Origin: Eledone cirrhosa
Lineage: Eukaryota
DNA: 64,000 nt
Direction: 5' to 3'
Assembly: GCA_964016885.1 (NCBI GenBank)
Contig: OZ024746.1
Location: 44,516,001 to 44,580,000 of the forward strand
The notes beneath the pieces are model-generated. The model ran no database searches, had not been told where the DNA came from, and saw only the letters and a list, made by a program, of their open reading frames with translations. Shown here piece after piece: positions 17,501 to 64,000 of the stretch; within the stretch, counting starts at the first letter, position 1; each line of letters opens with the position of its first letter. Position numbers and translations under genes: made by a program.

Positions 17501-17901
17501 CGGGATGTTCCAAGAAAGATCTCCAGACGCCGGAAGAAATCAGGCCGCCCTGCTCCTGTCGGGGCATAGACCGTCACTAGCCTGAAAGCTTGCCCGTCTC
17601 CGCTGGTCACGTATAGCACCAGCAACTTACATTCTGGGTCCAGGAAGATGGCCCGTATGTCGAGATCCAAACCTCTCCGAAAAAGCACAGCGACTCCTCC
17701 TCCCGATCCCGGATGGCTGGGAGATGCGTACACATCGTAGCCGCCGAAGATCGGTGCGAAGGCCCGTGCTTCGGAGATTCTGGTCTCGCTGATGGCCACT
17801 ACATCTATGTTTAGTGACCTGAGGTCGTTGAGCAGGTGGCCCTGCCTCCATGATGACCCCAAGCAGCGTGCATTTATGCTGCCTATTCTGAGTGAGGTCA
17901 T
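14543..17901 (-). pseudogene. ORF2: APE endonuclease + RT + C-terminal Cys motif, frameshifted
   Basis: SINARCL, VAISET, VYAP, LVGDWN (APE); KSPGLDG, FRPITLLN, DQSKAFDRV, SQGC, AYADD (RT); CPRCAQGDETVLHALVQC. Confidence 0.9.
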
Positions 17902-17978
17902 GTTGAAATGGAGTGGAAAAAATGGGAAAGACCACTTACCTTACTTCTCGTAGAGGAAGGATGGTTTGTCCATCCTTT

Positions 17979-25462: not shown

Positions 25463-25466
<4 letters not shown>

Positions 25467-25591
25467 GAACAAGTATGACCCCGACGGCAGCCGTCGGGGT
25501 CATACTTGTTCCTATTACCCACTCTACCACCCTAAGTATTGAGTACTTTGGTGCGTTATGGTCCATCTGGTTCCTTACCACATTTCCTTCG

Positions 25592-25593
<2 letters not shown>
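25463..25593 (+). mobile_element. Mini fold-back element (26-bp perfect arms + 78-nt tail) in (TA)n
   Basis: ataggaacaagtatgaccccgacggc-a-gccgtcggggtcatacttgttcctat. The tail is shared with the 31084 and 43021 copies. Confidence 0.85.
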
Positions 25594-25641
<48 letters not shown>

Positions 25642-25645
<4 letters not shown>

Positions 25646-26156
25646 CATGTAACTCAGTACAACCTGTGCACGGTCGGATCGTCGGTAACTAAACTGGCAA
25701 CCCCACCACGTTTGCTTGGAGAGGGTGGTAATTTTGGTCACCACCCTGAGGGATGAAAACCAAAACCTGTCAAAGGACGGAGGAACTCAGGAGAGTCAAT
25801 GGCCATCCAGTGGAGTATTTTGTTTTTGTGGAGCGGTAGACTTCTAGTCTTCATTAAGACAGATATCTAGGAGAAGGTTATTCTAACATAAAACCTGCAA
25901 CTTCGCTTGGATCCAATGATGTAGACCAGTTCTACTTTTTGGGTAAATAAATTCAATGTTCAGATAGTGGGACTGGCTCCATGCGAATCCTTTCTTCACT
26001 TAAAAAAGCTTGAAGCACAGGTATCGCTTGTTATGTGACATCACTTTGTAATTTATTACATGGCTAGCCATAGAGAAGTTCCTAGCAAGACTAAAAAGCC
26101 ACAAACGTGAACTTATGTATCAAGCGATAGCATTACTCAAAATCGAGTTGCAACCA

Positions 26157-30843: not shown

Positions 30844-30850
<7 letters not shown>

Positions 30851-30862
30851 TCATCATATTAT

Positions 30863-30948
<86 letters not shown>

Positions 30949-31071
30949 ATAATATGATGATCTCATACGAATGTAGAAATAATGTCTGTATATAAATATG
31001 CCTAAACTCTACCATTGTATTTAGTGCCATTTTTAACATTGGTTACTCCCAGACACAACTCGGGAATCTAC
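30844..31071 (+). mobile_element. Fold-back element centred on an (AT)n array, with ~105-nt tail
   Basis: tatgagatcatcatattatcttt-(AT)n-aaagataatatgatgatctcata. The tail ends in a hairpin plus atctac before TA repeats. Confidence 0.65.
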
Positions 31072-31083
31072 ATATAATATATT

Positions 31084-31291
31084 TAGAAAAAGAGTCAGGA
31101 CCTCGACGGCTGAGCTCCGGTCGTTTCGACAGCTAGATCTGAACTGGTTCAGATCTAGTTGTTGAAAGGGCCGGAGCTCACAATCGGGTCATGACTCTTT
31201 TCCTATTATCCACTCTACTACTCTAAGTATCGAGTACTCTGGTGCGTTATGGTCCACATGGTTACTTACCACACTTCCTTCGTTCGGATAA
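31084..31291 (+). mobile_element. Mini fold-back element (~60-bp arms + tail), diverged copy of the 25463/43021 family
   Basis: Arms centred on agatctgaac-tg-gttcagatct. Shared tail ...gagtactctggtgcgttatggtcc...ttccttcgtt, then (TA)n. Confidence 0.8.
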
Positions 31292-34212: not shown

Positions 34213-34215
<3 letters not shown>

Positions 34216-34360
34216 TAAAATAACAGATTAAAGTTTAAACAAAGAATCTTTGCTTAAACTTGAATCTGTTATTTTAATAAATATTTGCTCTACAGTTTTA
34301 TATATTTTATAAATATTTAATCCTTATCGAGCTCTCTTCGGACTTTAGTATTCACATTTA

Positions 34361-34370
<10 letters not shown>
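34213..34370 (+). mobile_element. Mini fold-back element (33-bp arms, 1-nt loop, ~90-nt tail) in (TA)n
   Basis: 34213-34245 is the reverse complement of 34247-34279 with 2 mismatches. The tail contains atcgagctct, and there are TA repeats on both sides. Confidence 0.7.
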
Positions 34371-35135: not shown

Positions 35136-38100
35136 CCCGATAGAGCGGCCGATTTGACCTGGCCGATAGATATCGACTAGATTTTCCGACTGTGCCACTG
35201 TGGACGTGGACTAAATTAGCGAAACATCTACATCGTACCTAGATAGGGTTCTAGTTAGAAAGAAGGATAACATAATCTGTCCACAAATGTTCGTGGTTGC
35301 CTATTCATATCACAAATTAGTGACCTGCTTAGTCAACCTTGACAAAACCCATAGACAGGGACCCGGCTACTGGAAGCTGAACTTGTCGTTACCGACATAC
35401 AAAGCCTACAGTAGACGGATTAGCACTTTAGTTAAGCAGCACTTGACGAGGGCCATTGTCAACAACAGATGGTGGTACTCTCTCAAGAGGGCAGTTAGAG
35501 TAGACTCGATAGGTTTTAGTAAAGAATTAGTGTTAGATAGAAATAAGACCGAAAAGGAACTGGTAGATAAAGTAGAAGTGGCACTTAGGAGTGACAACGT
35601 AGCCAGCGTGCTAGCGACGAGAACGGCCATGGACCAGTTCTTCGACACAAAGAATGAAGGCTGAGTTGTCAGAAGCAAAATACGTGCTCTGGGAAACGAG
35701 GGAGCCAAAGCTATTAGCTGGACCCGAGTGACGGATGCGAAAAGTGGCAACAAGTCCACGATTCGTTCTTTGAAGGACCAAGACCGACGCGTGATACGTG
35801 AGCCGAAGCAGATGTGCGCGGCCTTTCAGCGGCACTTTGCTTAACTGTTCGGGCAGGGCGGCGCACCGGGAGGGGCTATGGATTTCGGTCCATACCTCGA
35901 CGGCCTACAGCGACTCTCGGACACCGAGGCGAAGCTCTGCGAAAGGCCGATTTAGGCCGCTGAGATAGGGGACGGGCTGAGCCAATGCGGCAAACGCAAA
36001 TCTCCAGGTCTCGACGGTCTACCCTACGAATTTTATGTAGCAATGCCGGACTTATTCTCCGGTCTCCTGGAAGCGGTCTACTGCAACTGGCAGCAGAACG
36101 TGAGAATTTCCAGTTATGTGACCAAGGGCGTAATCACGTTAGTCAGGAAGGACGAGAACAAGGGGGATGGCATAAGCAACTTCCGGCCCATAACTTTGCT
36201 CAACACAGAGTTACAGATTTTGGCCAAGGTGTTGGCAAAGAGGCTGGCACTTGTCGTCGAAAACCTGGTGGGAGAAGCGCAGACATGCGCAATCTCGACC
36301 AAGTCCATACACGACAACCTCCACCTCATGCGATACATCATAGAGAGGGTAGGGTGTAAACCCGTCTTCGGTGGGGCCCTGATCAACGTGGATCAGTCTA
36401 AGGCTTTCGATAGGGTTGACCATCGTTACCTGGATGCAATGCTCGAGGCGGCAGGCTTCGGACCCGTTTTCAGAGGCTGGATTGCTGCAATGCACAGCAG
36501 CAACACCTGCTCGAGGGTCAAGGTTAACGGCTACCTCTCGGAGCCGTTCCAAATCGCGCGATCCATGCGACAGGGATGACCTCTCTCCTCCCTTCTGCAT
36601 GTGCTGGCTCTCGACCCACTACTGCGGAAGTTGGAGCTGCTGCAGGGAAACTCCTTGGAACCGGGATTGAGGAAAGCGGTGTCGGCCTACGCCGTGACGT
36701 GACAGTAATGGTGTCGTGCGCCTCGGAAATCGGGCAGATCGGCACCTTACTGGAGGAATACGAAAGGTTTACAGTAGCCAAGCTGAACCGGGACAAGTCC
36801 ATCGGTTTGCAACTCGGAACGTGGAGGGGCAAAACGATGCCTTCCGACGGCGTCGTCGGAGGCTGGACGGAGGGACCGGTGAAGCTGCTCGGGGTCTGGT
36901 TCGGACCGGACCTCCAGGTGGAGAAAAATTGGGACGACGTAACGGGCAGGGTGTTACACTCGCCCAGAAGTAGGCCGAGTGCAAACTACCCTTGAAAGGT
37001 CGAGCGGAGGTGGCGAACACTTATATAGCGTCCGTCATCTACTACCGCTTGACCGTCATACCTTACCCAGCGAAAGCGCTCGCCAAAATGGACGGGCGCT
37101 CTTCCGATTCTTTTGGAAGAAGCGGGCTCCCTTGGTGAGAAGATCCATCTGAAGTCAACACCCTTCGAACGGAGGGCTGGGGATGCGTAGACACGCATTA
37201 AGGCTACGGCACCTCCAGGTATTCCTCACCGGTCAGCCGGTGTGGGCCCCTTTTGTGAGGCGAGCCTTTCCAAGACTCGTCTCACTCACCGAGCGGCAAT
37301 CCTGGGTCAAGCAAAGACCGAGAAAAGTGGGCGACTGGCACATTGAATGTGCCCAGGCGCTCACGGCTCTCTGGCAATCGGATCCGGCAATCAGTGGAGA
37401 CTCAACCTCAACATTCTAAGAGGGTTGGTGCGCAGCAAGTGCGACGACGCTCTCGGAGAGGCTCTGGGCATGGAGGAAGATGAGCTAGCCAGTCTGTTTG
37501 GTAGGACGTTTGGCCCGGGACCGATGAACAACTTCCAAAACTCCCTGGATTGGCAGTGCTACCGAAGAGCTCTACCCGTTCGGGACAAGCTCTACAGACA
37601 CGGGCGCCCGGGTAAGGACCCCTCGAAGAAGATCTGTCCGAGATGCGTGAGTGACGAGGAAACCGTCGCGCACGCATTCGTACACTGCCCGGGCGTTGCT
37701 GACCTGTGGGGCTATGTGGAACGACTACTGTCGCGGGTGGGACCAATCCGGTTGACCACCGAGTACATTGTCACGATCAAACCGCCTCCCCGCTTCAAAA
37801 ACGAAAGAGAGGCGGTTTTCCTCTGTGTGATAGCTATGGCGAAAGAGGTTGCATGGTGGACGAGGTTGAAAGGGCTGAGGTCAGACACCTTTCTCTCCGA
37901 CCAACAAACTGGTCCTTTTTTCAAGTACCATTTTAGAAGAAGGAACAGAATGGAGAGAGAGGTGCTCTACCCCAGTAAGTTTTATGAAAGGTGGGTGAAA
38001 GTGGCGAGAATGGACCGAGTGAATGGGCCTTCTCTCTATATCAGCCTGTAGGTGAGAGAGGAGAGGAAGGAGGAGAGGAAGGGAGCACCCGCTCTTTGTG

Positions 38101-43020: not shown

Positions 43021-43024
<4 letters not shown>

Positions 43025-43220
43025 AACGAGTAGGACCCCGACGGCTGTGCTGAAGCCGTTTCGACAGCTAATTCTGGATTAAATTTAGATTTAGATTTAG
43101 TCCAGAATTAGCCGTCGAAACGGCTTGAGCTCAGCCGTCGGAGTCCTACTCTACTACCCTAAGTATTGAGTACTTTGGTGCGTTATGGTCCATCTGGTTC
43201 CTTACCACATTTCCTTCGTT
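43021..43220 (+). mobile_element. Mini fold-back element (51-bp arms + tail) containing a hammerhead 3' half, in (TA)n
   Basis: 43028-43078 is the reverse complement of 43101-43151 (4 mismatches). GAAA-CGGCT..AGCCG-TC at 43117-43139. Tail nearly identical to the 25463 copy. Confidence 0.85.
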
Positions 43221-43311: not shown

Positions 43312-43925
43312 CATATGGTAGCTGCCAACTCGTTTTCGAGTACGGCCACTACTTTATATCCATGTAGGAGAACCCCTACTGATGCGCTGAACGAGTGTGA
43401 CTTTTTAGTCCAGCCAGCGACTTGAAAACTCTGGTACAACACTGCACTTATGACAATTATTGACACATAGTGCTGTGCCCATGGTACCATGTGACGACAA
43501 GTGCAGAGAGATCTCCAGATATAAAGCAATGCCTGTGCCGTGAAGCTTTTATAGTGAGCAAAGGCATTGCACAAAGCCAGTCCCACTCTCTTAACCTAGA
43601 TGATATTTACCAAAAAGAAGAACAAGTCAACATCATCGGATACCATCAGGGTTGCAGGTGTTATATGAGAGTTTTCCTTCTAGAATTCTGCCTTGACAAA
43701 GGCTAAGCGGTCATCTCCCCCGGTGAATTTGGATGGACATTGTCTCTTAAGAGCTCCTTTGCCCTTTGACAGGTTTTGTTTTTAGTTCTGCAGGATGTCC
43801 AAAGTCATCCTCCTCACCAAGAAACCTTGGTGTGGTTGCCAGTTTAGTCTCCAATGACCCGACCATGAGACAGGTTTTACTGGGATACATGTTACCAGTA
43901 GCACCAACTGGTGACCTGACATTTA
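43312..43925 (-). mobile_element. Non-autonomous RTE-derived element (leader + 3' tip) flanked by (ATGT)n
   Basis: Homologous to 25642-26160. The 3' end on the minus strand is ggccgtactcgaaaacgagttggcagctaccat(atgt)n. No long ORF. Confidence 0.65.
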
Positions 43926-44094: not shown

Positions 44095-44129
<35 letters not shown>

Positions 44130-44200
44130 ATATATATATAAAATATTAAACAAATAATGAATAAACAATGAAAACAGTTCCTTATATTAAACAAAAAAAG

Positions 44201-44354
44201 TTCATTATTTAACGATCGTTTCTAGGATATATATGTGTTAGAATTGGCATGCATATTCAACAGATCTATGTACAAAATTATACAAAATTATACAAACTAT
44301 CAAGATTAAATATACATACCAACACATATATACGCCGTCTTCAGAAATAATGAA
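44201..44354 (-). ncRNA. Type I hammerhead ribozyme motif with long stem II (mirror copy)
   Basis: Reverse complement of 56086-56239. Confidence 0.75.
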
Positions 44355-44987
44355 ATATATTTATTGATAATAACAACAATTCAAAATTTCAGGTCCGTTT
44401 GGGAACAAAATTGACCAATGAAAATACAAAAGGTTTAATGCAGTTCGGTGTGTGTATATACATGTAACTACCCTTACACATATTTTACAAAAATGTATGC
44501 ACAACTTGTATACGCATACGAAAAGGATGGATGCAAATACAAAATTTCAAGGTTAATGTCTCTGTAAGTTTATAATGCACAGATAAGATGCGTATAGACA
44601 CATAAATATGAAATAAGTGTATATACATATTTTCATACTCACTCATATCCGTACAATCACACATACACACACATAAACTACGAACATACAAACACACACA
44701 CACCCCCACTCATATATATATATGTGGATATAAAATCCTAAGCACATGGATATTAATTCACTCACATAAACATTGGCACACACATTTAGATCAAGATACA
44801 GAAATTAGGTGGGAGGGGGGGAGAGGTCAGTATTCAACTGTTTGGGCAGACTGCTTAATATAGATGTATCTATAAACTAAGAAAATAAAAAATAATAAAT
44901 AATAAATAAACATTAAAAAGGAAAGAAAAGAAAAAGAAAAAGAAAAAGAAAAAGAAAAAAGAAAAAAGAAAAAAGAAATATATCAAG

Positions 44988-45037
<50 letters not shown>

Positions 45038-45227
45038 TGTATATATATATATATATATATACATACACGTACATACACACATATATATACACATACACAC
45101 ATACAAACACATACATACATATACACACATCCACACTTAGAACATACATACACACACATATATAAACATATACATATACACACATACATACATATACACA
45201 CATACATATAAATACACATATATAAAT

Positions 45228-45294
<67 letters not shown>

Positions 45295-45581
45295 CACTCA
45301 TACATACACATATAATCACACATACTATATAGACACACATATATATACACACATACACGCACATATACATACACTTACATACATATATACATACAGATAT
45401 ACACATACATACCTATATATACACACAAATACATACAGACATACATACATACATACAGACAAATACTTAGGCATCTATATATCGGTATATACATACAAAC
45501 ACCACTACACTCTCACACAACTCAGACATACAAAGAAAAAGGTATATATCTATACACATATACATATACAAATAGAGAAAC

Positions 45582-45613
<32 letters not shown>

Positions 45614-45852
45614 ATATATATATATACATATATATATACATATACATACATATACACATATACACACATACACATACATACACATACATACATGTACACA
45701 CACATAGATATATATACACATACACACATACACACATACATATTTAGTCATACACACACATACACCTACACGAACATACACATACACATATATAAAGATA
45801 TATATACACACACACACACACATACACACACACACATATATATAAAAAATGA

Positions 45853-45895
<43 letters not shown>

Positions 45896-46807
45896 TACAT
45901 ACATATACATACACACATACATAGACATATATGTACATACATACACATACATAGATACATACACACACATACATACATATATATATACACACATAGACAT
46001 ATACTTACATACACACACAACATACATACACACATATATACTCATACATAGAATTAGATATATAATCATACATACATACGCACTTACATATACTCATATA
46101 TACAAATACATACGCATCCATATATGCGTATATACATAGAAACACCACTACACCCTCACCCAACTCAGACATACAAAGAAAAAGGCATATACATATACAT
46201 ATATACACGCATTAATAGAGATATATATACACATATATATATATATATATATACACACACATACACTTATATATATATACTCACACCCACATACAACCAA
46301 AAATACACATACAAACACCCACATATACATATATATACACATATATATATATACACACACATAAAAAACAGACATGCACATATATATTTTTTTACACACA
46401 TATATACACATATATATACATATACACACCCTCACATATACACACATACACATAAGTTATATTATAATAATAAATAATATATATATATAACACATACATA
46501 TATACATATATATATATACATATATATACATATATATATATACACATACGAATATAGACATATATACGCACATAGATACACATATATATATATATACACA
46601 TACATATACACACACACATATACACACTCACATATACATGTGTGTGCACACACACATATATACACATACACACATATGCACATAAACACATATATGTGTA
46701 TACATGCGCACACACACATATATCCACATAGATACGAAGATAGACATATAAATAGAGAGACATACATATATATACACACACACACATATACATACATACA
46801 TACACAC

Positions 46808-46858
<51 letters not shown>

Positions 46859-48200
46859 CATATACACATACACACATACACATACACATATATATACACA
46901 CATGCATATATACACATATACACATACATACACACACATATATATACACACACAATCTTACATTCTTATTTGCATGCGCATATATGTATTTTTATATTCA
47001 GATATAAATACCCAAACATATATACACCTACCTACATATATATTCATACATACACGCCTACAAAGACAGAAGGTAGTAGTATGGGGGAAAGGGGGGGGGT
47101 TGGAGAAGGGGATTATAGTAAATATATGTTTCAAGAAACATAGAATATTATCCGTATCAGGATCCAATGTATATTTTTTTACATAGTTTCAGTGTTAGGA
47201 AATACAATAAACAAGAAATAAGGCAAAATTTATGCATTTCAAAATAAATAAGTATACCATTAAATTATATGTTAACTAAACTAAAGATAGTTAACATATT
47301 GATTTCTAAGGTGTAAATTAGTTAGGTTTATAATATTTGAAGCAGAATTTTGAAGTTAAATAGTAGTAGAGTATTAATTATAGTATAACTAAATTAAAAT
47401 TAATAACGTTATGGTATCAATATTAGGAACTGAATTTAGTAATAGGGAAAAAACAAATAAGTATTACATCGGTAGTAGAATATAAATTATAGGTTAACTA
47501 AATTAAAAATTATATATTTATTTCTATAGTATATGTTAATTAGGTATATAATAAATAAAACAGATATTGTATTTTATCAATAGCAGAATATAATTATATG
47601 CAAATAGAAATCAAAATTAATACATATACATATACATATACATACACATATATATATACACATATATATACATATATATATACACATATACACATATACA
47701 CACACACACACATACACATACACATATACATATACATATTTTTTCAAAAATTGCAAAGAATATATTAACTAGGTATATATCCAAAACACATCCCATTCCA
47801 TGATTACATGACATTCTGCAATTCGTCTGTATAAGGATACTAATTTTAAGCCAATTAAATTAAATTTTTAGGTTGATTAAAATTAAAACCAAATTATAAA
47901 TATATTTCTAAAATGTATATTAATAAGGTCTATAATACTAAAAATTAATTCTCTGTCATTGGATACACGATATTTTGTTATATTTTATCTGTAAAAGAAT
48001 TATAATAAAAGGTTTAAATAAATTAAAATTAATCTATAAATTAAATTACTAAGTATATATTAGTAATATTTAAAGGTTTTTCACAATTTATGATTACATA
48101 ATATTTTATATTCTCATCTGTAATAGAATTTTAATTAAATTAAATTTATAGGTTAACTAACATTTAAATTAAAATTAAATTAATTTCTAAAATAATGTTA

Positions 48201-50196
48201 TTAATTAGGTTTATAATATTTAAATGTTTTTTTTAGTTTATGATTACACGATATAATTAATTCCTGTCGTTTATTTAATAGGATATCCTTAGATTTCATT
48301 ATTTCAAATAGTTCTTGGGAACATAATCTACATTCATTTCTATTATTTTGATAAGGGGTGGCTCTTTTGAGCACACTCCAGGTCAAATCATATTCTATAT
48401 TCTTATTTTTATAAATATTGATTTTTTCTGCTAGAGATGTTGTATTAGCCAGTGCGGCATTTTTAAAACTATGCTTGTGGGTATTAAACCTTGTCTTAAA
48501 ATTGTTAGAGGTAGCTCCTATATATGAGCAAATAGAATCTTTAGTTTTAACATTACATTTATAGACTATGTTGTTAACAAGACAATTCCCTTTTAATGGG
48601 CAGTTTGCTTTGTTTCTACAGTTACAACCTTTCGTTAATTTTGTATTTGAGGAGATATTATGGTTAATTTGATGTACTGGTGGTATACTTATGGTTTTCT
48701 TACATTTATATGCATTATAGGCACTTATATTTTGTTTTATGTTATTTGTTGTAGAATATGAGAATTTAACTGTAGACCTATTTAAGATTTGATGGTATTT
48801 GTGGTTTGGCGGGAAGTTTTTCTCTAGGATATAAAAAAATTTTTTAGCAATATTATCCTTAATTTGTAAATTAAATGGAGCATTATACCAAGTAACCCGT
48901 CTATTACGGTTTCTATGTTGTTTATTATTTTTATTATTTTTATAGGTTGTATCGTGATTTTTACTAGGAGGATTAATGTTAATGATCTCACCACAACCAT
49001 TTTTAGTTATATTTGTAGATTTAGGTGTTTTATCCTTTTTATTAGGAGTTTTATTATTAATATTTATTAGAGTTGTATGATGAGTAGTTTTTTGAGAGTT
49101 ACTATACTTTATATTAGAAGATTTGGTATTTTGGGGTATAGTGTGGGTGGCATTTAGGTGTGTACTTTTCATTTGGTGTTTGTTGGTAATATTAGGTTGT
49201 ATGCTTTCAGTATTTTTAGTAGAAGGTATATATTCTAATCTATTTTTGTGGCCACTTCTATCTAGAGATTCGTTATAGAAGGTAGCATTTTTATCAAATA
49301 CATCTTGGTTAGAAGAAAGGTTAGAAATTCTAAGTGATATATTATATGCAAGGTTTTTAAGGATAGATTTAGGGTGATTAGATTGTGAGTGTATGTAATG
49401 TAAGTTTTGGTTTGGTTTATGGTAAGGTTGGTAGATACCCGTAGCTAAATCTAAAGTTATATCTAGGAAATTTACTACTTTACTTGTTTTTTCAAAAGTA
49501 ATATTAAGATTATAATAGTCTTTAAGGAAAGTTCTAATATGTTTTTTGTTTTTTTCAATTTCTGAAAGGCTAAGGTTGTTAGAAAGAAGAAGACAGTCAT
49601 CACGATATAAACCACCTTTGAGGTGGGGAAAGGAGGCATTTATGTTGAAAAGGAGAAAGAGGCCCACAAGATCAGTAATTTGGGCGGAATCGCTTGAACC
49701 CATAGTAATATCAAATAGATTACTATATGTGTTTCTGGTCCAGTATTCATTCTGAAATTCAATAAGTGTTAGTCTAGCATGTGTAATAATATTAATGTCA
49801 TCCAAAGTTAAGTTAGATCTATTTTTAGCAAATATCGATGCTTTGTTCAGGAGTATAGGTGATATAGAAGAATAGTAATTATCTATATCAAATTGTAGAA
49901 ATGAAGCAGAAGATTTACATCTAATATTTTTAAACCAGTTAATTACCTGGGAGGTGTTTTCCCAGAGTGGTAAAATAACGTGTTTTCTTATTTGTGGGAT
50001 GACTCTATCCAAAATTTTTTTGCTAATTATTCCAATATCTGATTTGGAGGGACATATAAGTCTAATAGAAGGATTTGAGTTAAAATTTGATTTATGATCC
50101 TTCAGGTTGAAGTGTGGTCTTTTCAATGCCAAAGGTTCAGTTCTATCTTCAATGTTTAGTTTTTTTACTATGTTGTGTGTTTTGTTGTTGATGTTG
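48201..50196 (-). CDS. Penelope-like (Naiad-type) RT + GIY-YIG endonuclease, 5'-truncated, open frame
   Basis: FDIDNYYSSI, ITMGSSDSAQ, LYRDD, FLDITLDL, SNHP, WYNAPF, CNCRNKANCPLKGNCL, IVYK...YIGAT...FKTRF..H. Three aa differences from the right-arm copy. Confidence 0.9.
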
Positions 50197-52241
50197 ATAA
50201 AGAACTCAGAAAAAATTATAAAAAATCTAATAATGCGTCACTCACCAACATCAACAACAAAACACACAACATAGTAAAAAAACTAAACATTGAAGATAGA
50301 ACTGAACCTTTGGCATTGAAAAGACCACACTTCAACCTGAAGGATCATAAATCAAATTTTAACTCAAATCCTTCTATTAGACTTATATGTCCCTCCAAAT
50401 CAGATATTGGAATAATTAGCAAAAAAATTTTGGATAGAGTCATCCCACAAATAAGAAAACACGTTATTTTACCACTCTGGGAAAACACCTCCCAGGTAAT
50501 TAACTGGTTTAAAAATATTAGATGTAAATCTTCTGCTTCATTTCTACAATTTGATATAGATAATTACTATTCTTCTATATCACCTATACTCCTGAACAAA
50601 GCATTGATATTTGCTAAAAATAGATCTAACTTAACTTTGGATGACATTAATATTATTACACATGCTAGACTAACACTTATTGAATTTCAGAATGAATACT
50701 GGACCAGAAACACATATAGTAATCTATTTGATATTACTATGGGTTCAAGCGATTCCGCCCAAATTACTGATCTTGTGGGCCTCTTTCTCCTTTTCAACAT
50801 AAATGCCTCCTTTCCCCACCTCAAAGGTGGTTTATATCGTGATGACTGTCTTCTTCTTTCTAACAACCTTAGCCTTTCAGAAATTGAAAAAAACAAAAAA
50901 CATATTAGAACTTTCCTTAAAGACTATTATAATCTTAATATTACTTTTGAAAAAACAAGTAAAGTAGTAAATTTCCTAGATATAACTTTAGATTTAGCTA
51001 CGGGTATCTACCAACCTTACCATAAACCAAACCAAAACTTACATTACATACACTCACAATCTAATCACCCTAAATCTATCCTTAAAAACCTTGCATATAA
51101 TATATCACTTAGAATTTCTAACCTTTCTTCTAACCAAGATGTATTTGATAAAAATGCGACCTTCTATAACGAAGCTCTAGATAGAAGTGGCCACAAAAAT
51201 AGATTAGAATATATACCTTCTACTAAAAATACTGAAAGCATACAACCTAATATTACCAACAAACACCAAATGAAAAGTACACACCTAAATGCCACCCACA
51301 CTATACCCCAAAATACCAAATCTTCTAATATAAAGTATAGTAACTCTCAAAAAACTACTCATCATACAACTCTAATAAATATTAATAATAAAACTCCTAA
51401 TAAAAAGGATAAAACACCTAAATCTACAAATATAACTAAAAATGGTTGTGGTGAGATCATTAACATTAATCCTCCTAGTAAAAATCACGATACAACCTAT
51501 AAAAATAATAAAAATAATAAACAACATAGAAACCGTAATAGACGGGTTACTTGGTATAATGCTCCATTTAATTTACAAATTAAGGATAATATTGCTAAAA
51601 AATTTTTTTATATCCTAGAGAAAAACTTCCCGCCAAACCACAAATACCATCAAATCTTAAATAGGTCTACAGTTAAATTCTCATATTCTACAACAAATAA
51701 CATAAAACAAAATATAAGTGCCTATAATGCATATAAATGTAAGAAAACCATAAGTATACCACCAGTACATCAAATTAACCATAATATCTCCTCAAATACA
51801 AAATTAACGAAAGGTTGTAACTGTAGAAACAAAGCAAACTGCCCATTAAAAGGGAATTGTCTTGTTAACAACATAGTCTATAAATGTAATGTTAAAACTA
51901 AAGATTCTATTTGCTCATATATAGGAGCTACCTCTAACAATTTTAAGACAAGGTTTAATACCCACAAGCATAGTTTTAAAAATGCCGCACTGGCTAATAC
52001 AACATCTCTAGCAGAAAAAATCAATATTTATAAAAATAAGAATATAGAATATGATTTGACCTGGAGTGTGCTCAAAAGAGCCACCCCTTATCAAAATAAT
52101 AGAAATGAATGTAGATTATGTTCCCAAGAACTATTTGAAATAATGAAATCTAAGAATATCCTATTAAATAAACGACAGGAATTAATTATATCGTGTAATC
52201 ATAAACTAAAAAAAACATTTAAATATTATAAACCTAATTAA
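50192..52241 (+). CDS. Penelope-like (Naiad-type) RT + GIY-YIG endonuclease, 5'-truncated, open frame
   Basis: Same motifs as the left arm. CxCx5C-P-x-G-x-C before the GIY-YIG and a C-terminal CxLC..E..LLNKR fit the Naiad clade. The ORF-track start at 50175 lies in the inverted arm and is not a natural start. Confidence 0.9.
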
Positions 52242-53582
52242 TAACATTATTTTAGAAATTAATTTAATTTTAATTTAAATGTTAGTTAACCTATAAATTT
52301 AATTTAATTAAAATTCTATTACAGATGAGAATATAAAATATTATGTAATCATAAATTGTGAAAAACCTTTAAATATTACTAATATATACTTAGTAATTTA
52401 ATTTATAGATTAATTTTAATTTATTTAAACCTTTTATTATAATTCTTTTACAGATAAAATATAACAAAATATCGTGTATCCAATGACAGAGAATTAACTT
52501 TTAGTATTATAGACCTAATTAATATACATTTTAGAAATATATTTATAATTTGGTTTTAATTTTAATCAACCTAAAAATTTAATTTAATTGGCTTAAAATT
52601 AGTATCCTTATACAGACGAATTGCAGAATGTCATGTAATCATGGAATGGGATGTGTTTTGGATATATACCTAGTTAATATATTCTTTGCAATTTTTGAAA
52701 AAATATGTATATGTATATGTGTATGTGTATGTGTGTGTGTGTGTATATGTGTATATGTGTATATATATATGTATATATATGTGTATATATATATGTGTAT
52801 GTATATGTATATGTATATGTATTAATTTTGATTTCTATTTGCATATAATTATATTCTGCTATTGATAAAATACAATATCTGTTTTATTTATTATATACCT
52901 AATTAACATATACTATAGAAATAAATATATAATTTTTAATTTAGTTAACCTATAATTTATATTCTACTACCGATGTAATACTTATTTGTTTTTTCCCTAT
53001 TACTAAATTCAGTTCCTAATATTGATACCATAACGTTATTAATTTTAATTTAGTTATACTATAATTAATACTCTACTACTATTTAACTTCAAAATTCTGC
53101 TTCAAATATTATAAACCTAACTAATTTACACCTTAGAAATCAATATGTTAACTATCTTTAGTTTAGTTAACATATAATTTAATGGTATACTTATTTATTT
53201 TGAAATGCATAAATTTTGCCTTATTTCTTGTTTATTGTATTTCCTAACACTGAAACTATGTAAAAAAATATACATTGGATCCTGATACGGATAATATTCT
53301 ATGTTTCTTGAAACATATATTTACTATAATCCCCTTCTCCAACCCCCCCCTTTCCCCCATACTACTACCTTCTGTCTTTGTAGGCGTGTATGTATGAATA
53401 TATATGTAGGTAGGTGTATATATGTTTGGGTATTTATATCTGAATATAAAAATACATATATGCGCATGCAAATAAGAATGTAAGATTGTGTGTGTATATA
53501 TATGTGTGTGTATGTATGTGTATATGTGTATATATGCATGTGTGTATATATATGTGTATGTGTATGTGTGTATGTGTATATG

Positions 53583-53637
<55 letters not shown>

Positions 53638-54541
53638 GTGTGTATGTATGTATGTATATGTGTGTGTGTGTATATATATGTATGTCTCTCTATTTATATG
53701 TCTATCTTCGTATCTATGTGGATATATGTGTGTGTGCGCATGTATACACATATATGTGTTTATGTGCATATGTGTGTATGTGTATATATGTGTGTGTGCA
53801 CACACATGTATATGTGAGTGTGTATATGTGTGTGTGTATATGTATGTGTATATATATATATATGTGTATCTATGTGCGTATATATGTCTATATTCGTATG
53901 TGTATATATATATGTATATATATGTATATATATATATGTATATATGTATGTGTTATATATATATATTATTTATTATTATAATATAACTTATGTGTATGTG
54001 TGTATATGTGAGGGTGTGTATATGTATATATATGTGTATATATGTGTGTAAAAAAATATATATGTGCATGTCTGTTTTTTATGTGTGTGTATATATATAT
54101 ATGTGTATATATATGTATATGTGGGTGTTTGTATGTGTATTTTTGGTTGTATGTGGGTGTGAGTATATATATATAAGTGTATGTGTGTATATATATATAT
54201 ATATGTGTATATATATCTCTATTAATGCGTGTATATATGTATATGTATATGCCTTTTTCTTTGTATGTCTGAGTTGGGTGAGGGTGTAGTGGTGTTTCTA
54301 TGTATATACGCATATATGGATGCGTATGTATTTGTATATATGAGTATATGTAAGTGCGTATGTATGTATGATTATATATCTAATTCTATGTATGAGTATA
54401 TATGTGTGTATGTATGTTGTGTGTGTATGTAAGTTTATGTCTATGTGTGTATATATATATGTATGTATGTGTGTGTATGTATCTATGTATGTGTATGTAT
54501 GTACATATATGTCTATGTATGTGTGTATGTATATGTATGTA

Positions 54542-54608
<67 letters not shown>

Positions 54609-54853
54609 TCATTTTTTATATATATGTGTGTGTGTGTATGTGTGTGTGTGTGTGTATATATATCTTTATATATGTGTATGTGTATGTTCGTGTAGGTGTA
54701 TGTGTGTGTATGACTAAATATGTATGTGTGTATGTGTGTATGTGTATATATATCTATGTGTGTGTACATGTATGTATGTGTATGTATGTGTATGTGTGTA
54801 TATGTGTATATGTATGTATATGTATATATATATGTATATATATATATATATAT

Positions 54854-54885
<32 letters not shown>

Positions 54886-55172
54886 GTTTCTCTATTTGTA
54901 TATGTATATGTGTATAGATATATACCTTTTTCTTTGTATGTCTGAGTTGTGTGAGAGTGTAGTGGTGTTTGTATGTATATACCGATATATAGATGCCTAA
55001 GTATTTGTCTGTATGTATGTATGTATGTCTGTATGTATTTGTGTGTATATATAGGTATGTATGTGTATATCTGTATGTATATATGTATGTAAGTGTATGT
55101 ATATGTGCGTGTATGTGTGTATATATATGTGTGTCTATATAGTATGTGTGATTATATGTGTATGTATGAGTG

Positions 55173-55219
<47 letters not shown>

Positions 55220-55381
55220 ATTTATATATGTGTATTTATATGTATGTGTGTATATGTATGTATGTGTGTATATGTATATGTTTATATATGTGTGTGTATG
55301 TATGTTCTAAGTGTGGATGTGTGTATATGTATGTATGTGTTTGTATGTGTGTATGTGTATATATATGTGTGTATGTACGTG

Positions 55382-55451
<70 letters not shown>

Positions 55452-56436
55452 CTTGATATATTTCTTTTTTCTTTTTTCTTTTTCTTTTTCTTTTCTTTCC
55501 TTTTTAATGTTTATTTATTATTTATTATTTTTTATTTTCTTAGTTTATAGATACATCTATATTAAGCAGTCTGCCCAAACAGTTGAATACTGACCTCTCC
55601 CCCCCTCCCACCTAATTTCTGTATCTTGATCTAAATGTGTGTGCCAATGTTTATGTGAGTGAATTAATATCCATGTGCTTAGGATTTTATATCCACATAT
55701 ATATATGTGAGTGGGGGTGAGTGTGTGTTTGTATGTTCGTAGTTTATGTGTATGTTTATGCATATACGCGTGTGTATGTGTGATTGTACGGATATGAGTG
55801 AGTATGAAAATATGTATATACACTTATTTCATATTTATGTGTCTATACGCATCTTATCTGTGCATTATAAACTTACAGAGACATTAACCTTGAAATTTTG
55901 TATTTGCATCCATCCTTTTCGTATGCGTATACAAGTTGTGCATACATTTTTGTAAAATATGTGTAAGGGTAGTTACATGTATATACACACACCGAACTGC
56001 ATTAAACCTTTTGTATTTTCATTGGTCAATTTTGTTCCCAAACGGACCTGAAATTTTGAATTGTTGTTATTATCAATAAATATATTTCATTATTTCTGAA
56101 GACGGCGTATATATGTGTTGGTATGTATATTTAATCTTGATAGTTTGTATAATTTTGTATAATTTTGTACATAGATCTGTTGAATATGCATGCCAATTCT
56201 AACACATATATATCCTAGAAACGATCGTTAAATAATGAACTTTTTTTGTTTAATATAAGGAACTGTTTTCATTGTTTATTCATTATTTGTTTAATATTTT
56301 ATCTTGACTCTGTATACCGTTTATCTTTCACCGAAAGTGATTTTTCATTACATCTCTTCTTTCCATGATATCCGGAATACATTGAGTTCTTCATACGGAT
56401 TGGACACTACCGTAAACTCTTGGTAGATTTATCTAC
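50197..56436 (+). mobile_element. Right arm of palindromic Naiad-type element, with 49-bp central spacer and unpaired 3' tail
   Basis: Spacer 50197-50245, arm 50246-56302, tail 56303-56436 ending atctac before (TA)n. Confidence 0.93.
56086..56239 (+). ncRNA. Type I hammerhead ribozyme motif with ~115-nt stem II
   Basis: Stem I ttcattattt (56086-95)/aaataatgaa (56230-39); CTGAAGA at 56096-56102; GAAA at 56218-21; palindromic stem III CGATCG; predicted cleavage triplet GUU. Confidence 0.75.
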
Positions 56437-56460
56437 ATATATATATATATATATATATTT

Positions 56461-58075
56461 CTTTCTCCATCTCACAGTCTGTGGCCTACTCCAGTGCCAC
56501 GGAACACCCGCCCATCGCCTCACGGTCGAACAACGTACTATCTTCCTCTTACAGACCCACACTCCCCCGGCCTGAACTCCCCAACCTTATTCCTTTAGCG
56601 TTCGACCGCCCCCCTCCCCCACTTATCCCCCACTAACACCACTAACACACCCCTCCTTTTCACCGCCCACCCCACACTAACAATACTAACACCTCCACTC
56701 CACCCCTCATCTAACCACCCTTCCCCAACTAACATACTAACATCCCTTCCCTCCCCTCTTCTCCTCCTCCCCCCTCCTTATCACACGCACACACTCACAC
56801 CACCCACCCCACACGCAACTAACATCACTAACACCCTCCAACCCCGCGCACACGTACCCACACACCCTCGTACACCACCAACTCTACACACCCTACCCCC
56901 ACTAACCCCCACTCACACCTGCATTCCACCCCTCCCCACCTCCCGTCTACTAACACCCACTAACACCTCCTCACCAAACTACACACACACCAGTACACCA
57001 CACTCCCTCCATAGAACCACACACACCCTTCTCTCCCCACTCCACACTCACTCATCCCACTAACACCCCTACTAATACACACACACACAGACACACACAC
57101 GCACACACACACACACCCTCCTCACTCCAACTCTCACACCTACCCATCCTCGCCTCCCTACCCTTCCGCTGACTGCTGCTATGCCCTTCCGACCACTGTC
57201 TCAGCACCAACTGACCACAGCACTTCCACTGCTGACCACTTCCTGTTGCGCGCGCACCCCACATCTCTCCTCTTCCGACCACCGCTTCTTGGATTACCCA
57301 CACGCGTTTTGACTTCCAACCAAAATCTCCATACATCCGTGTAACTTACCACTTTCAACCATCCTCTAACACCATCACCTATATAACTCACCCACACACA
57401 CATCCCAAAACAAATTTTTTTTATCCACACGCCACCCACACCCACAACACGCTTAAACCACCACACACACGTGCTTCCCACCACATATTTACACCCTCAG
57501 CCCCCTGATTCCTCTCCCCCCACCCCCTATCCACACACGCACAGACCCTCCGACACACAAAAACACCCCCCACACACACCTTCCTGAACATGCAACCCCG
57601 TTCTTCCCCCAACCCGCACTTTCACATACACACACACACACACACACGCACACCTAACCACACACACCACCTTCAGCCCTCCCCGCTCGGACACCCCGTC
57701 TCCCTCTCCCCACTCCACCCGCCTCCACCTCTACTCACCCCACACCCTTCCACCACCTGTTTACCCCCCTTTTAATTTCAGTTTATTTTGATCATGCCTT
57801 TATTTTTAAATGTTCTCATTCCTTGTATTTTGATCATGCTTTATTTTTATTTATTATTTATTATATTTTTGTCTTTATTTGTTAATTTTTCATTCGCACC
57901 GTTTCCTTTCGCTATATGTCTCTCCACCACTCCCCTACACACCTTTTGAACTCTTACCTGAAGAAGGGCTTATGCCCGAAACGTCGTCCTCCACCTACCC
58001 CCCACTCTCCTGAGCGTGAATCTAATAAACATTTGTCGTACTGCCTCTCTGTTCTGTCCCTGTTCAATTGTTTAT
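56461..58075 (+). mobile_element. 3' remnant of a second Penelope-like element (Neptune-type GIY-YIG end, C/A-rich 3' region)
   Basis: 56468-56598 encodes HLTVCGLLQCHGTPAHRLTVEQRTIFLLQTHTP/GLNSPTLFL* with 1 frameshift. Hammerhead core and aataaa (58024) near the 3' end; (TA)n on both sides. Confidence 0.7.
57956..57988 (+). ncRNA. Minimal hammerhead core, stem I largely lost
   Basis: CTGAAGA-A-GGGC-TTAT-GCCC-GAAA-CG-TC; only 2 bp (ac/gt) of stem I remain. Confidence 0.55.
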
Positions 58076-58289
58076 TATATATATATATATATACATATAC
58101 ATACACACACACACACTCACACACACATATACACACACATACATTAATAACAATAATAATAATAATAATAATAATAACAATAACAACAACAATAACAACA
58201 ACAACAACAATAATAATATACATATACATATATATATACACACACACGCACACGCATAAGCATATCTACACACACACACACGATAGCAA

Positions 58290-59495
58290 CTAACAGCGCT
58301 GCGATCGAATGTGGCTTTTTAGCCCAGCCAATGATCTAAAATGTCTTGCACAGAGTCGGCAACCAAAACATTCACTGGGAATAGTCGGCTGTGGCTGGAG
58401 TTCGTGTACTTTTGCATGTCGCTTGAGCCCTCCTGCTGATTTACATTCTCTACCACATGTTTGGCAAGCATGATGAGTAGCATCTCCAACAGCAGCCTGG
58501 TAGACAACCACTGGTCTTACTTTATGACTGCGAAGATGACTTTCGAGTCCAGCTTTGCTTAGGCAGAGTCTTGCACATACGCTGCATGTCAGCACCATAG
58601 GAGGACCCTCGCCGTCTGGAAGTGCAACAGCAATGCCCTTCCTCACATCCCGCTTAACTTTCTCGTGTGCTATTCGAGATGCCTCAAAGGCAACTTTTCC
58701 CTCATATACAGTCTTTCTCCATTTATTACGATTAGCAGCAATATTCTCCCATGTATCAGCAGAGATGTTAGCGTCTTTCAGAGAGGCTTTCAAGGAATCC
58801 TTATACCTCTTTTTTGGCTTATGTGGCGGTCGTTTTCCTTTAACCAACTCTCCATAAAAGAGTTGTTTTGGTATTCTAGAATCCTTCATCCTGGCAAGAT
58901 GACCACTCCAACGGAGTCGTTGCTTAAGCACAAGAGCTTCTATACTGTCACACATAGAGCATTCCAAAATCTCGACATCACTGATGTGGTCCCTCCAGTG
59001 AACGCCATGGATCCGTCTGAGACACATCTGATGGAAACGCTCCAATTGCTTAAGGTGGCGTCGATATGTGACCCAGGTCTCGCAGGCATAAAGAAGACAA
59101 GAGAGCACACATGCCCTGTACACCTTTACCTTTGTCCTCCTGCATATGTCTCGCCGACCCCAGAGTCGCGTTTCTAGCTTTCCGAAAGCATCACTTGCTT
59201 TCCTAATCCTAAGTGAGATTTCACTGTCAAGGTTGCTGTATCGATTGACAGTGCTTCCCAGGTAGACAAACTGATCAACCACTCCAAGTCGTTTGCCATA
59301 CACATAGATGTTTGGTTCAGTGTACTGCTTACCGGGGGCAGGTTGGAACATGACGACGGTTTTCTTGAGACTGACAGTCAGACCTAGGACAGTGCAAGCG
59401 TCAGAAAATGCATTCAAAATGTGCTGCATATCACTCTCTGTGTGCGCTACAAGATCGCAATAATCTGCATACAAGATGTCTCTTATGATTGATGT
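58290..59495 (-). pseudogene. 5'-truncated RTE-clade ORF (RT C-terminal half + three C2H2 fingers)
   Basis: ILYADY (YADD mutated), FVYLGS, LLYACETW, RLRWSGH, PKQLFYGEL, then CSVC..H..H, CQTC..H..H and CRLC..H. The 5' end is joined to (ATGT)n. Confidence 0.88.
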
Positions 59496-59988
59496 AAATA
59501 CATACATACATACATACATACATACATACATACATAGTCTACAAATGGCTGCGATAGCTGGCACCTTCAAAATATGCAAAACATTCTTGCGATTCAAGGG
59601 ATGACAATTTCTTTTCTTTTACAACCTTGCCACCAGGAAGGTGGCCGGTCAAAAAAATATACTCGACCTAGTCAGACCTAGGACAGTGCAAGCGTCAGAA
59701 AATGCATTCAAAATGTGCTGCATATCACTCTCTGTGTGCGCTACAAGATCGCAATAATCTGCATACAAGATGTCTCTTATGATTGATGTAAATACATACA
59801 TACATACATACATACATACATACATACATACATACATACATACATACATACATACATAGTCTACAAATGGCTGCGATAGCTGGCACCTTCAAAATATGCA
59901 AAACATTCTTGCGATTCAAGGGATGACAATTTCTTTTCTTTTACAACCTTGCCACCAGGAAGGTGGCCGGTCAAAAAAATATACTCGA
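59376..59988. repeat. Tandem duplication (~290/320 bp) spanning the RTE 5' junction
   Basis: 59376-59666 is repeated at 59670-59988, differing in (CATA)n length. Confidence 0.9.
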
Positions 59989-60055: not shown

Positions 60056-60244
60056 CTTTTTAAATATTCTTACTCTTTGTGGACGAAGAAATTAATTAAC
60101 TATATTTGGAAGATAGTATAGTGAATTTATTTATTAATGTTAATTAATACATTTTGTTCTCTATTACTTGTAGTGGTAAACGTAGTGGTAAACGTAAAGT
60201 GGTATCCTTCATAAATGCTATGAAGGATGACATATAAAAGTATG

Positions 60245-60327
<83 letters not shown>

Positions 60328-60499
60328 ATATATATACATACTTTTAAGTGTTATCCTTAATAAGTGCTACGTTTACCACTACAAGTAATAGAGAACAAAA
60401 TGTATTAATTAACATTAATAAATAAATTCTCTATACCTATATCTTTCAAATATAGTTAATTAATTTCTTCGTTCACAAAGAGTAAGAATATTTAAAAAG
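60056..60499. mobile_element. ~445-bp palindromic element (MITE or fold-back) centred on (TA)n
   Basis: 60056-60185 is the approximate reverse complement of 60367-60499. Inner arms also pair, and there is TA on both sides. Confidence 0.75.
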
Positions 60500-62399: not shown

Positions 62400-64000
62400 T
62401 AGACATGCATTCAGCGAGTGTGTGTGTCATTGCAATTAGAATGATCTCAATTAGCATTCTTGTCTTTTTAAGACCGGAAAAGTTGATGTACAGTGATATT
62501 TTCTAGATATGTCTAAACATTGTGTATCTTTTTTTTTAAAGAGCTGGTGGATTGATAATCCTCATTGACGTAAATACCTAAGAGATTTTCTTTCTGGAAT
62601 AAGTCTATATTTCGCGTAAGACATATAGTTCTGGTGTGGATGACACAGGCGTTCAGAAAGGCTTAAGTTGTATGAAGTATGGTATCAACAGTATAAAGAT
62701 GGCTCTCACAAGTGACAGCAATTATGCCGTCAATAATCAAATGGAAGGTTATGGAAGTCACCACCAAAAGATTGTTACACCAAAGTCAATGGGAAGTCAA
62801 TTTGGTCTAACAGTATTCCTCTGATTCGAGAAATAAGAGAACTAGAGAAATACGTGGGTAACGAGGCCTGTAGATGTTCGCATCAGACACAGTCGAATGT
62901 TTGCAGTTATAAACTACAGACTACTATTGGATACTACATTAAGATTGAGTCTCCAGTATATATTTCCTTATGAAAATATGCTGAAGGTTAGAAGAAAGAG
63001 AGTTTCAAGTTGAAGAAGGAGGTAATTATTTGCATTTGTCCCTTCATGTTTTACATGTTTGAATCGAGATTGATAGATTGATATTTAGTATGGTCAGAGA
63101 GGTTGACCCAAAGGAAATGTAATACACTGAATCATGCTCTTAAAAACGAAACGAAAACAAGTTCCGAGATATAGAATGGAATATAGGGGTTAATGTTTAC
63201 TAAGTGTTTGTATTTGAGGAGAATAGTGTGAACGGGATGGAATATACGTAGTCTGGACTGGTTATCGTATTATCTTTGGGATTAGAAGAACTGTTTTTTG
63301 TTCATGTTCAACATAGATATGGTAATCAGGTAGTTTACCAAGTTTTTTAACAATTGACCGTACGTGCTGTGAAGGTCTAAATACGTTATCTAATGCTTTT
63401 AAAGTAGCCCGTTGAGTGATGCGGCTATTTCTAGAATGTTGATGCGACTAATTTCTTTATAATGTTCCTTTGTTTGTAATGTGGTTTAATTGCGATGCAG
63501 ATAGTTTCCAATTTTCCTCGTGTTTACTGTATGTTCTTTAAATGAATTTCCTATTATTTTTTATGTTGATCTTTATTTTTCTTGTGTTGTGTTTAGAATA
63601 GGTCTTTCTGTATATCACGTTGACTATTTCCATTGTGAAATTTGAGTAGATTTTTATTTGCTTTATGAGATGTTTTGTTTGAATGATTTTGTCATTCGTT
63701 TATTGAATGAATGTATTGCAGACTCTTTGTTGCTGGTCATAGTGCTAATGAATTCTGCAAACCCAAATTCAGTTTCATTGGAGTGGTTGTAATGGAATTT
63801 ACAATGTTTTTAAAAGTAATTTTGCTTTGTGAAAATCCTTTAATGATTATGGACAGGTTGTCAGAAGACAGTTGATTCAGTATTTCCCATATGATTGTTG
63901 TGGCTATATGTGTGGTCAGACCGTTATGTCTGCATAGATAAATGAGCGAGATTTATAGATAAGTTTAACAATATTTTGTCTACACTTATGCTATCTGTGT
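62400..64000 (-). mobile_element. Highly decayed Penelope-like RT relic
   Basis: Ordered minus-strand remnants NLGLQ, GNIYWRLN (cf. G..Y.Q..G), ITANI and NLPFD. Many stops. Confidence 0.4.

Follow-up and report, generated by a model that had tools for sequence, protein, structure and literature searches.

A tail motif shared by giant and mini fold-back elements of Eledone cirrhosa is one half of a predicted hairpin conserved in Hydra-clade Penelope-like elements

Analysis of a 64-kb stretch of Eledone cirrhosa DNA (hereafter the window, 64,000 nt) has revealed that a short motif shared by the unpaired tails of one giant (12 kb) and several mini fold-back elements is, as modelled here, one half of a small predicted RNA hairpin which is conserved in Penelope-like elements (PLEs) of the Hydra clade. 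The motif may bear on how PLEs pick the point at which copying starts, and on why their insertions carry an inverted arm plus a tail at one end only; the sole in vitro study, as far as the accessible part of its text goes, found two internal starts and narrowed the signal for protein binding no further than to 172 nt (PMC11167929). A hairpin of ~25 nt that is conserved across Hydra families, is present twice and lies 4-6 nt from insertion ends would be a precise candidate for the start signal, checkable with a few mutants. The features of the window elements are collected in Table 1.

Table 1. Position and layout of the giant, mini and decayed fold-back elements in the window.
Feature	Position	Strand	Remark
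(TA)n target, left flank of giant	44096..44140		TA runs 44096-44117 and 44119-44140
Inverted arm of giant, tail-less copy	44138..50196	-	outer end corresponds to a position 4 nt short of the base of the hairpin
Inverted copy of the RT-endonuclease frame	48201..50237	-	
Unpaired center of giant, 49 nt	50197..50245	+	coding sequence of the plus copy
5'-truncated Hydra-clade PLE frame, 693 aa stop to stop	50160..52241	+	first codons from the inverted arm
Direct arm of giant	50246..56302	+	
Microsatellite-rich 3' untranslated region of giant, 3.8 kb	52242..56087	+	
Type I hammerhead ribozyme motif of giant	56088..56237	+	predicted cleavage after 56229
Tail of giant, 135 nt	56303..56437	+	direct copy only
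Conserved bulged hairpin HP1 of giant (ACUC...UU-GAGU-UCU), long loop insert	56307..56390	+	motif of the preliminary description at 56381-56390
(TA)10 target, right flank of giant	56438..56457		
Mini fold-back, family 25k	25463..25592	+	turn at 25489 in hammerhead stem III palindrome; arm end 5 nt before hairpin 25521-25547
Mini fold-back, family 25k	31084..31291	+	turn in hammerhead stem II; arm end 6 nt before hairpin 31212-31238
Mini fold-back, family 25k	43023..43219	+	turn in stem II; short deletion takes out the arm-end site; hairpin 43148-43174
Mini fold-back, second family (34k)	34215..34370	+	turn at 34246; hairpin 34287-34335 (GCUC/GAGC)
Decayed sixth element	30846..31072	+	20-nt arms around (TA)40; degenerate hairpin 31006-31028

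The preliminary description of this DNA had listed five 10-mers at 25538, 31229, 34326, 43165 and 56381, about 35-55 nt from the 3' end of the tails, and took them for a cis signal of a single TA-targeted system. All five were recovered at these positions on the plus strand, and the distance was borne out as well, with the last base of the motif 45, 53, 35, 45 and 47 nt, respectively, from the next (TA)n. The degenerate pattern ATYGAGYWCT, drawn post hoc from the window instances, matches six times in the window vs. 1.01 +/- 0.95 times in 100 shuffles, none of which reached six matches. The sixth match, at 32550, has no TA run within 70 nt on its 3' side and no hairpin call, and was therefore taken as a chance match. 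Given that the pattern is post hoc and that the elements at 25538, 31229 and 43165 are one family (88-97% identical), the window alone comes down to three independent cases, and the real test lies in loci outside of it. Three features were absent from the preliminary description: the strand that pairs with the motif on its 5' side, the upstream hammerhead and the decayed element at 30846-31072, the sixth of its kind.

In the hairpin, RCUC pairs with GAGY, accompanied by a 2-nt bulge (mostly UU) and a variable upper stem, with RCU located 3' of the base. We compared 18 end-anchored hairpins, 13 from outside loci and five from the window (the 43148 copy was left out), in which pair 1 is GC in 14 and AU in 4, pair 3 is UA in 17 and AU in 1, and pair 5 is UA in 12 and CG in 6. 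Positions 5-7 of the upper stem are Watson-Crick in 46 of 54 cells vs. 22.7 expected, a value reached in 0 of 20000 permutations, and these covariation figures are inflated by a set that was picked in part with a pairing descriptor and by the relatedness of the families. Pairing of the upper stem emerges in the 2-nt bulge register only. With 10-nt flanks included, four of the 18 hairpins (25521, 31212, 31006 and HP1 of L004) favor another fold, and the counts of G-U vs. A-C (3 vs. 2) cannot tell RNA from DNA. A covariance model built on the 13 outside hairpins only, with five of seven pairs kept, was applied blind to the 64 kb and ranked 25521, 43148 and 31212 first (E 0.017-0.039) and 34287 sixth (E 1.3); it missed the giant's 84-nt hairpin and the degenerate hairpin at 31006. 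On the alignment of this model, the covariation score was reached in 1 of 500 shuffles and the count of pairs with two-sided change in 40 of 500. The giant's hairpin rests on folding (pair probabilities 0.86-1.00) together with its place 77 nt after the predicted hammerhead cut. Loose hairpin descriptors, some of whose 5' starts are misplaced, gave 6 hits observed vs. 2.2 expected in the window and 12 vs. 3.35 in the loci. The 10-mer is indeed conserved, as the preliminary description had it, but these data suggest that it forms the 3' strand of a covarying hairpin rather than a linear motif.

Two other identities for the motif were considered and ruled out. A minus-strand hammerhead core lacks GAAA and stem III here, and the hammerhead lies upstream on the plus strand; a twister-sister-like ribozyme has internal loops of 5 and 6 nt in the account available to us (PMC11620745) vs. 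the 2-nt bulge of this hairpin. A search of Rfam 15 returned no match at gathering score in the window and none over the hairpins at relaxed E-values.

Beyond the window, a protein search yielded 78 relatives, 41 of which were aligned with the window protein, and a scan of a genome collection led to nine loci, L001-L009; tblastn against plasmids and phages gave no match. Over the best segment, identity to the giant's frame is 41-44% in eight of these loci and 36% in the remaining one, and several of them keep RWK and DKT. These loci are filed as bacterial genome bins yet contain eukaryote-type retroelements; because the matched regions are Hydra-type PLEs, several of them in (TA)n, we regard the loci as likely eukaryotic DNA that is mis-binned or in chimeric contigs. 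In L004 the Hydra element is joined to bacterial-looking sequence near 6840, and L003 and L007 harbor nested PLE insertions in (TA)n.

A structural search returned 21 hammerhead-like sites, of which the 19 PLE-like ones in L001-L009 were tested (set aside as not PLE-like were L004 9607, in bacterial sequence, and window 34641, with a non-canonical core; L002 ends inside its hammerhead and offers no site). A hairpin call followed all 10 of the Hydra-type hammerhead sites whose sequence continues, representing nine families. No call was obtained for Hydra-type sites that run into simple repeat within 32-57 nt (0 of 7) or for the sites of a PLE with CCHH (0 of 2), and the background is 9% of random windows. 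In the giant as well as in the outside loci, the hairpin lies 40-77 nt past the point where the hammerhead is predicted to cut. The claim of a conserved cis signal in TA-targeted RT/GIY-YIG elements, at a fixed position in a larger set, therefore stood in the nine outside loci and families, where the hairpin lies 3' of each of these 10 running-on Hydra-type hammerheads. Inspected by eye, published Hydra consensus sequences show the full hairpin in three of six (Hydra-2_Amil, Hydra-1_Ajap and Hydra-2_Ajap) and an imperfect one in Hydra-1_Amil, Hydra-1_Crog and Hydra-1_Obim. Six 9-mers searched in the supplement of PMC8557442, to the extent that it was available, gave eight matches, four at Hydra termini and four in Naiad/Chlamys files; the Naiad and Chlamys files are far larger, with matches lying inside long sequence blocks, and line breaks can hide matches.

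Judged from its sequence, the giant is a 5'-truncated Hydra-clade PLE with an inverted arm. This assignment to the clade follows from: 1) YRDD at residue 226 of the frame, the CxCx5C linker CNCRNKANC at residue 553 and YIG at residue 587; 2) a C-terminal, GIY-YIG-type endonuclease with CxxC and CxH near the C-terminus, in which CCHH was looked for and is absent, while two control ORFs of L007 have it; 3) a type I hammerhead motif after the ORF; and 4) (TA)n runs flanking the element on both sides as target. A Naiad/Chlamys PLE was ruled out by the C-terminal position of the endonuclease and the presence of the hammerhead motif, and a Neptune/Poseidon PLE by the lack of CCHH in the endonuclease. 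The copy is truncated 5' of the RWK/DKT region, and both RWK and DKT are present in the relatives L001, L002 and L004. Pfam gave no RT or GIY-YIG match for the giant's protein and a GIY-YIG match in one of 42 relatives; the predicted fold (mean pLDDT 78.7) is an RT fold with telomerase RTs as the closest solved folds. The hammerhead comprises an 8-bp stem I, a CUGAAGA core at 56096, a 115-nt stem II and a palindromic stem III (z = -6.9); it has no Rfam match, and Rfam likewise missed canonical hammerheads in five outside loci. The two arms differ by 13 mismatches plus microsatellite length differences across ~6.06 kb, and their coordinates (44138-50196 and 50246-56302) therefore set the tail at 56303-56437.

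The element class of the giant and its layout of arm, arm and tail are already known. The Hydra clade was defined by Craig et al. (2021) through the CxCx5C linker, RWK/DKT, a C-terminal endonuclease without CCHH and (TA)n insertion, its elements are called 'generally short', under 3 kb, and a truncated copy in inverted orientation, together with a one-end tail, is typical of PLEs (PMC8557442, in the portions available). The giant resembles the clade so described in its C-terminal GIY-YIG-type endonuclease without CCHH, CxCx5C linker, type I hammerhead after the ORF, (TA)n target, inverted 5'-truncated copy and one-end tail; unlike the published Hydra elements in that account, it has a 3.8-kb 3' UTR, a 115-nt hammerhead stem II, a 135-nt tail and ~100 inserted disordered residues (PMC8557442). 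The latter are Asn/Lys/Thr-rich and lie in frame at residues 357-456 (51228-51530). That one arm reaches 6.06 kb, and not the less than 3 kb typical of the clade, is due to the 3.8-kb 3' UTR. The Penelope elements of Adineta vaga (Arkhipova et al. 2013) are similar to the giant in having inverted pLTRs, an optional tail, junction palindromes, a captured spacer before the 3' pLTR and Asn-rich in-frame inserts, and are unlike the Hydra elements here in their 31-bp tail and target-site duplications; the word 'hairpin' occurs 0 times, and no conserved hairpin is mentioned, in the accessible text of that paper (PMC3846280). As a side observation, an extra small stem-loop is seen near the end of the giant's tail (56391-56437) and of two other tails (25548-25592 and 31029-31072), and ATCTACA directly before the TA run ends both the giant and the 30846 element.

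The minis follow the same order as Hydra elements, namely hammerhead remnant, hairpin and tail. The 25k family holds the 3' half of a hammerhead (GAA, stem III, the cut site and a remnant of stem II), and the remnant in the 34215 element is the stem III palindrome only, its turning palindrome at 34246 reading as hammerhead stem III. Turning points differ among the three 25k copies (stem III in one, stem II in the others), and the centers at 25489 and 34246 are one nucleotide each. One outside family was met in two settings with 96.8% identity over 186 nt: L003 has it as a mini fold-back, and in L007 it stands behind a Hydra ORF. Because this family stands behind the L007 ORF, and because only 7-9-nt words of the minis match the 3' end of the giant, the minis look most simply like very short 3' ends, i.e. 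severely truncated insertions of other Hydra-type families, and they may also be non-autonomous. A dispersed inverted repeat pair, 76% alike, was also noticed at 25645-26029 and 43524-43892, each copy close to a 25k-family mini. Non-LTR retrozymes are comparable to the minis in being short and non-coding, with type I hammerheads and a relationship to PLE pLTRs, but they consist of head-to-tail tandem repeats with whole hammerheads (bioRxiv 10.64898/2026.07.22.740005, as far as its text was available), whereas each mini is one head-to-head fold-back that holds half a hammerhead; we thus ruled out this identity for the minis.

The preliminary description had gone further and joined giant and minis into one system from 130 bp to 12 kb, in which the minis would be dedicated non-autonomous partners moved in trans by the giant's protein. 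We consider this very unlikely. The hairpin and the (TA)n target are indeed common to both, non-autonomous PLEs do exist (PMC8557442, in its available portions), and an A-U first pair, which the giant shares with the 25k family and the 30846 element and which 0 of 13 outside hairpins have, hints at kinship. Against these points, the giant is itself 5'-truncated and misses the RWK and DKT region, the 25k copies turn at differing points as expected of independent truncations, and the mini fold-back family of L003 is the one found behind a Hydra ORF in L007. Membership of the minis in the giant's family was likewise not upheld, their common ground with its 3' end amounting to those 7-9-nt words only. 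Several Hydra-clade families with a clade-wide signal fit better, the minis having their own hammerhead remnants, and a hairpin signal that would be shared by the whole clade, not one giant element with mini partners, is the best model.

Insertion ends offer a further view on the hairpin. In families that have both a tailed and a tail-less end (leaving out the 43148 copy, which has a deletion at the site), the tail-less copies break off 4-6 nt short of the base of the hairpin in 10 of 13 comparisons from six families; of the other three, two are blurred by chance TA matches and one is the 30846 element, an exception to the rule in that its arm leaves off 40 nt ahead of the hairpin. Of 15 tailed 3' ends, 13 have a TA run 32-53 nt past the hairpin. 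The position of the signal is fixed, as had been proposed, but it is fixed to the end of the inverted arm (4-6 nt upstream) more than to the 3' end, where the distance of 32-53 nt is variable. Furthermore, the intact 5' UTRs of three loci (L001, L004 and L009) contain two hairpins, 39-40 nt apart, and two hairpins, 35 nt apart, are seen by eye in the Hydra-1_Ajap consensus. In L009, where a 5' UTR and a tailed 3' end occur together, the tailed end breaks off 4 nt short of the site that corresponds to hairpin 2; the end rule for hairpin 2 has this one direct case and one indirect case, by eye, in the Hydra-1_Crog consensus, the window elements being too short. With both types of end located just 5' of a hairpin, we therefore read the tail as the stretch from one such site to the next (one direct case for hairpin 2). 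The main element of L003 is a fold-back with two tail-less ends, so that the combination of a short and a long end is not obligatory. Copies that begin at the base of hairpin 1 right after an AT-rich repeat were also observed, one a solo hairpin-plus-tail (L007 3437-3495) and the other full-length (L009 5489).

Might the hairpins be promoter or translation signals of the 5' UTR, with the adjoining ends a coincidence of AT-rich sequence? Hairpin 2 sits 19-32 nt before the likely start codon in L001, L004 and L009, and the bases right before the ends are AT-rich, but the offset of 4-6 nt holds in six families with spacers that differ in sequence as well as in length (25-77 nt from the hammerhead cut), and this explanation seems to us extremely improbable. 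Rather, because inserted copies stop 4-6 nt before the hairpin, the hairpin likely marks the point where the RT starts copying. We surmise, from sequence and by analogy, that each hairpin probably anchors the RT-endonuclease, with reverse transcription starting 4-6 nt on the hairpin's 5' side, such that two hairpins would mean two starts; these would supply the two starts known for PLEs and hence the layout of arm, arm and tail. In the mechanism that we postulate, the endonuclease would cut both strands of (TA)n; one cut end would prime before hairpin 2 and copy hairpin 1 plus 30-55 nt, which would become the tail; the other cut end would prime before hairpin 1, yielding the tail-less inverted arm; and the two cDNAs would join head to head, in short copies at the self-complementary helices of the hammerhead. 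Giant and minis would be products of this one mechanism in different Hydra-type families, with 6 kb copied in the former vs. only 30-70 nt in the latter.

A related proposal places the signal in DNA: a single cDNA would fold back, the GIY-YIG domain would see the hairpin in the cDNA or duplex and cut or stop the second strand 4-6 nt before it, and the tail would be a product of resolution by the endonuclease. This is in keeping with the giant's arms, whose ends are no more than 49 nt apart after 6 kb, and with the two minis that turn in stem II, a natural snap-back, and there is precedent in the available literature, in that PLE tails were ascribed to endonuclease-mediated resolution (PMC8557442), the D. 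virilis endonuclease depended on the presence of the tail in a plasmid (reported in PMC11167929) and junction palindromes were taken as self-priming (PMC3846280). By itself, the proposal leaves unexplained why the tailed end of L009 stops just before the second hairpin; the one-nucleotide centers at 25489 and 34246 are easier to obtain between two molecules, and both tail ends were RT start sites in vitro in a Poseidon element (PMC11167929, in the part accessible to us). We regard a reading in DNA as unlikely on the whole. An RNA reading of a different kind would have the hairpin direct cleavage of the RNA at a point 4-6 nt upstream, whether a host nuclease or the RNA itself does the cutting; the ends would then be ordinary template 3' ends, as in LINE priming. 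The copies starting at the hairpin 1 base after an AT-rich repeat (L009 5489 and L007 3437) do resemble cut-to-cut RNA pieces. A bulged stem of 25 nt, however, would be very small for a ribozyme, and the hairpin is without an Rfam match. Besides, the Poseidon enzyme starts internally whatever the RNA end (PMC11167929, in the same part). Overall, cleavage is distinctly unlikely in our estimate.

Returning to reverse transcription started at two hairpins, the closest precedent is the Poseidon element PAc of Anolis (Frangieh et al. 2024), for which the accessible text reports that two internal RT start sites bracket the genomic tail in vitro, that both target strands are cut and extended on AT-rich targets, and that RNA 3' of the start is required (PMC11167929). 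The likeness to the Hydra model lies in the two internal starts around the tail, the extension of both strands, the AT-rich targets and the needed RNA 3' of the hammerhead. PAc is of another clade, with starts located in a stem-loop rich in AC inside the ORF, whereas in the Hydra elements here the 5' UTR carries a bulged hairpin in duplicate, and ends lie 4-6 nt 5' of it, and the accessible text on PAc defines no conserved cross-phylum signal (PMC11167929).

By role alone, the hairpin can also be compared with small RNA stems elsewhere. Both the 3' stem-loops of stringent LINEs and their SINEs and the template-boundary element of telomerase are small RNA stems, read by an RT, that set where copying starts or stops. 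The LINE stem-loop sits inside the copied RNA, near its 3' end, in contrast to the Hydra hairpin, which is 3' of the start that it would set and would not be copied from that start. A more specific and decidedly tentative version of our proposal is that the duplicated ~25-nt hairpin may serve as a ruler, with two RT-endonuclease subunits on one RNA, both strands primed 4-6 nt from the hairpin bases and the cDNAs joined head to head. If true, a single step would account for both the inverted arm of PLEs and their optional tail, and the sister group of telomerase, which the RTs of PLEs are (PMC8557442, in its available portions), would gain a defined anchor in the RNA by which the start of the template is set; this anchor might also work when moved to other RNAs.

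In the literature searched, with few subscription papers or Repbase reports in its scope, we found no description of the hairpin, the 4-6 nt end rule or the hairpin pair, and a conserved twin-hairpin signal predicting Hydra insertion ends is apparently undescribed. In the available main text of PMC8557442, 'hairpin' and 'stem-loop' occur 0 times, and the twin hairpin is visible in the consensus files of that paper. For annotation, short TA-flanked palindromes that resemble MITEs or fold-back DNA transposons would become recognizable as truncated retroelement ends, and the boundaries of Hydra consensus sequences could be set by rule.

The 64-kb window is rich in microsatellites and holds several other elements. 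A hammerhead core (CUGAAGA...GAAA) whose stem I pairs poorly lies at 57946-58080; a TA run comes ~90 nt further on, the conserved hairpin is missing, and the stretch probably represents a different kind of PLE, its 3' end having decayed. Inverted arms of ~130 nt, 95% alike, surround (TA)38 at 60056-60499, beginning in a TA run and with no hairpin 3' of them; possibly these are the ends of a non-Hydra element. On the minus strand, an A-rich decayed reading frame with many stops at 62400-64000 may be an old PLE RT. Positions 1-22100 are occupied by at least four related copies of a non-LTR retrotransposon, 85-95% alike, several ending in (TAA)n, and this cluster has one open frame of 1141 aa at 10693-14118. 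Two broken elements in opposite orientation, 72% alike (14495-17940, minus; 35215-38051, plus), are presumably L1/Tx1-like. Finally, the minus strand at 58290-59618 encodes the C-terminus of an RT, which we take to be RTE-like, followed by zinc-finger repeats that are presumably of the C2H2 type.
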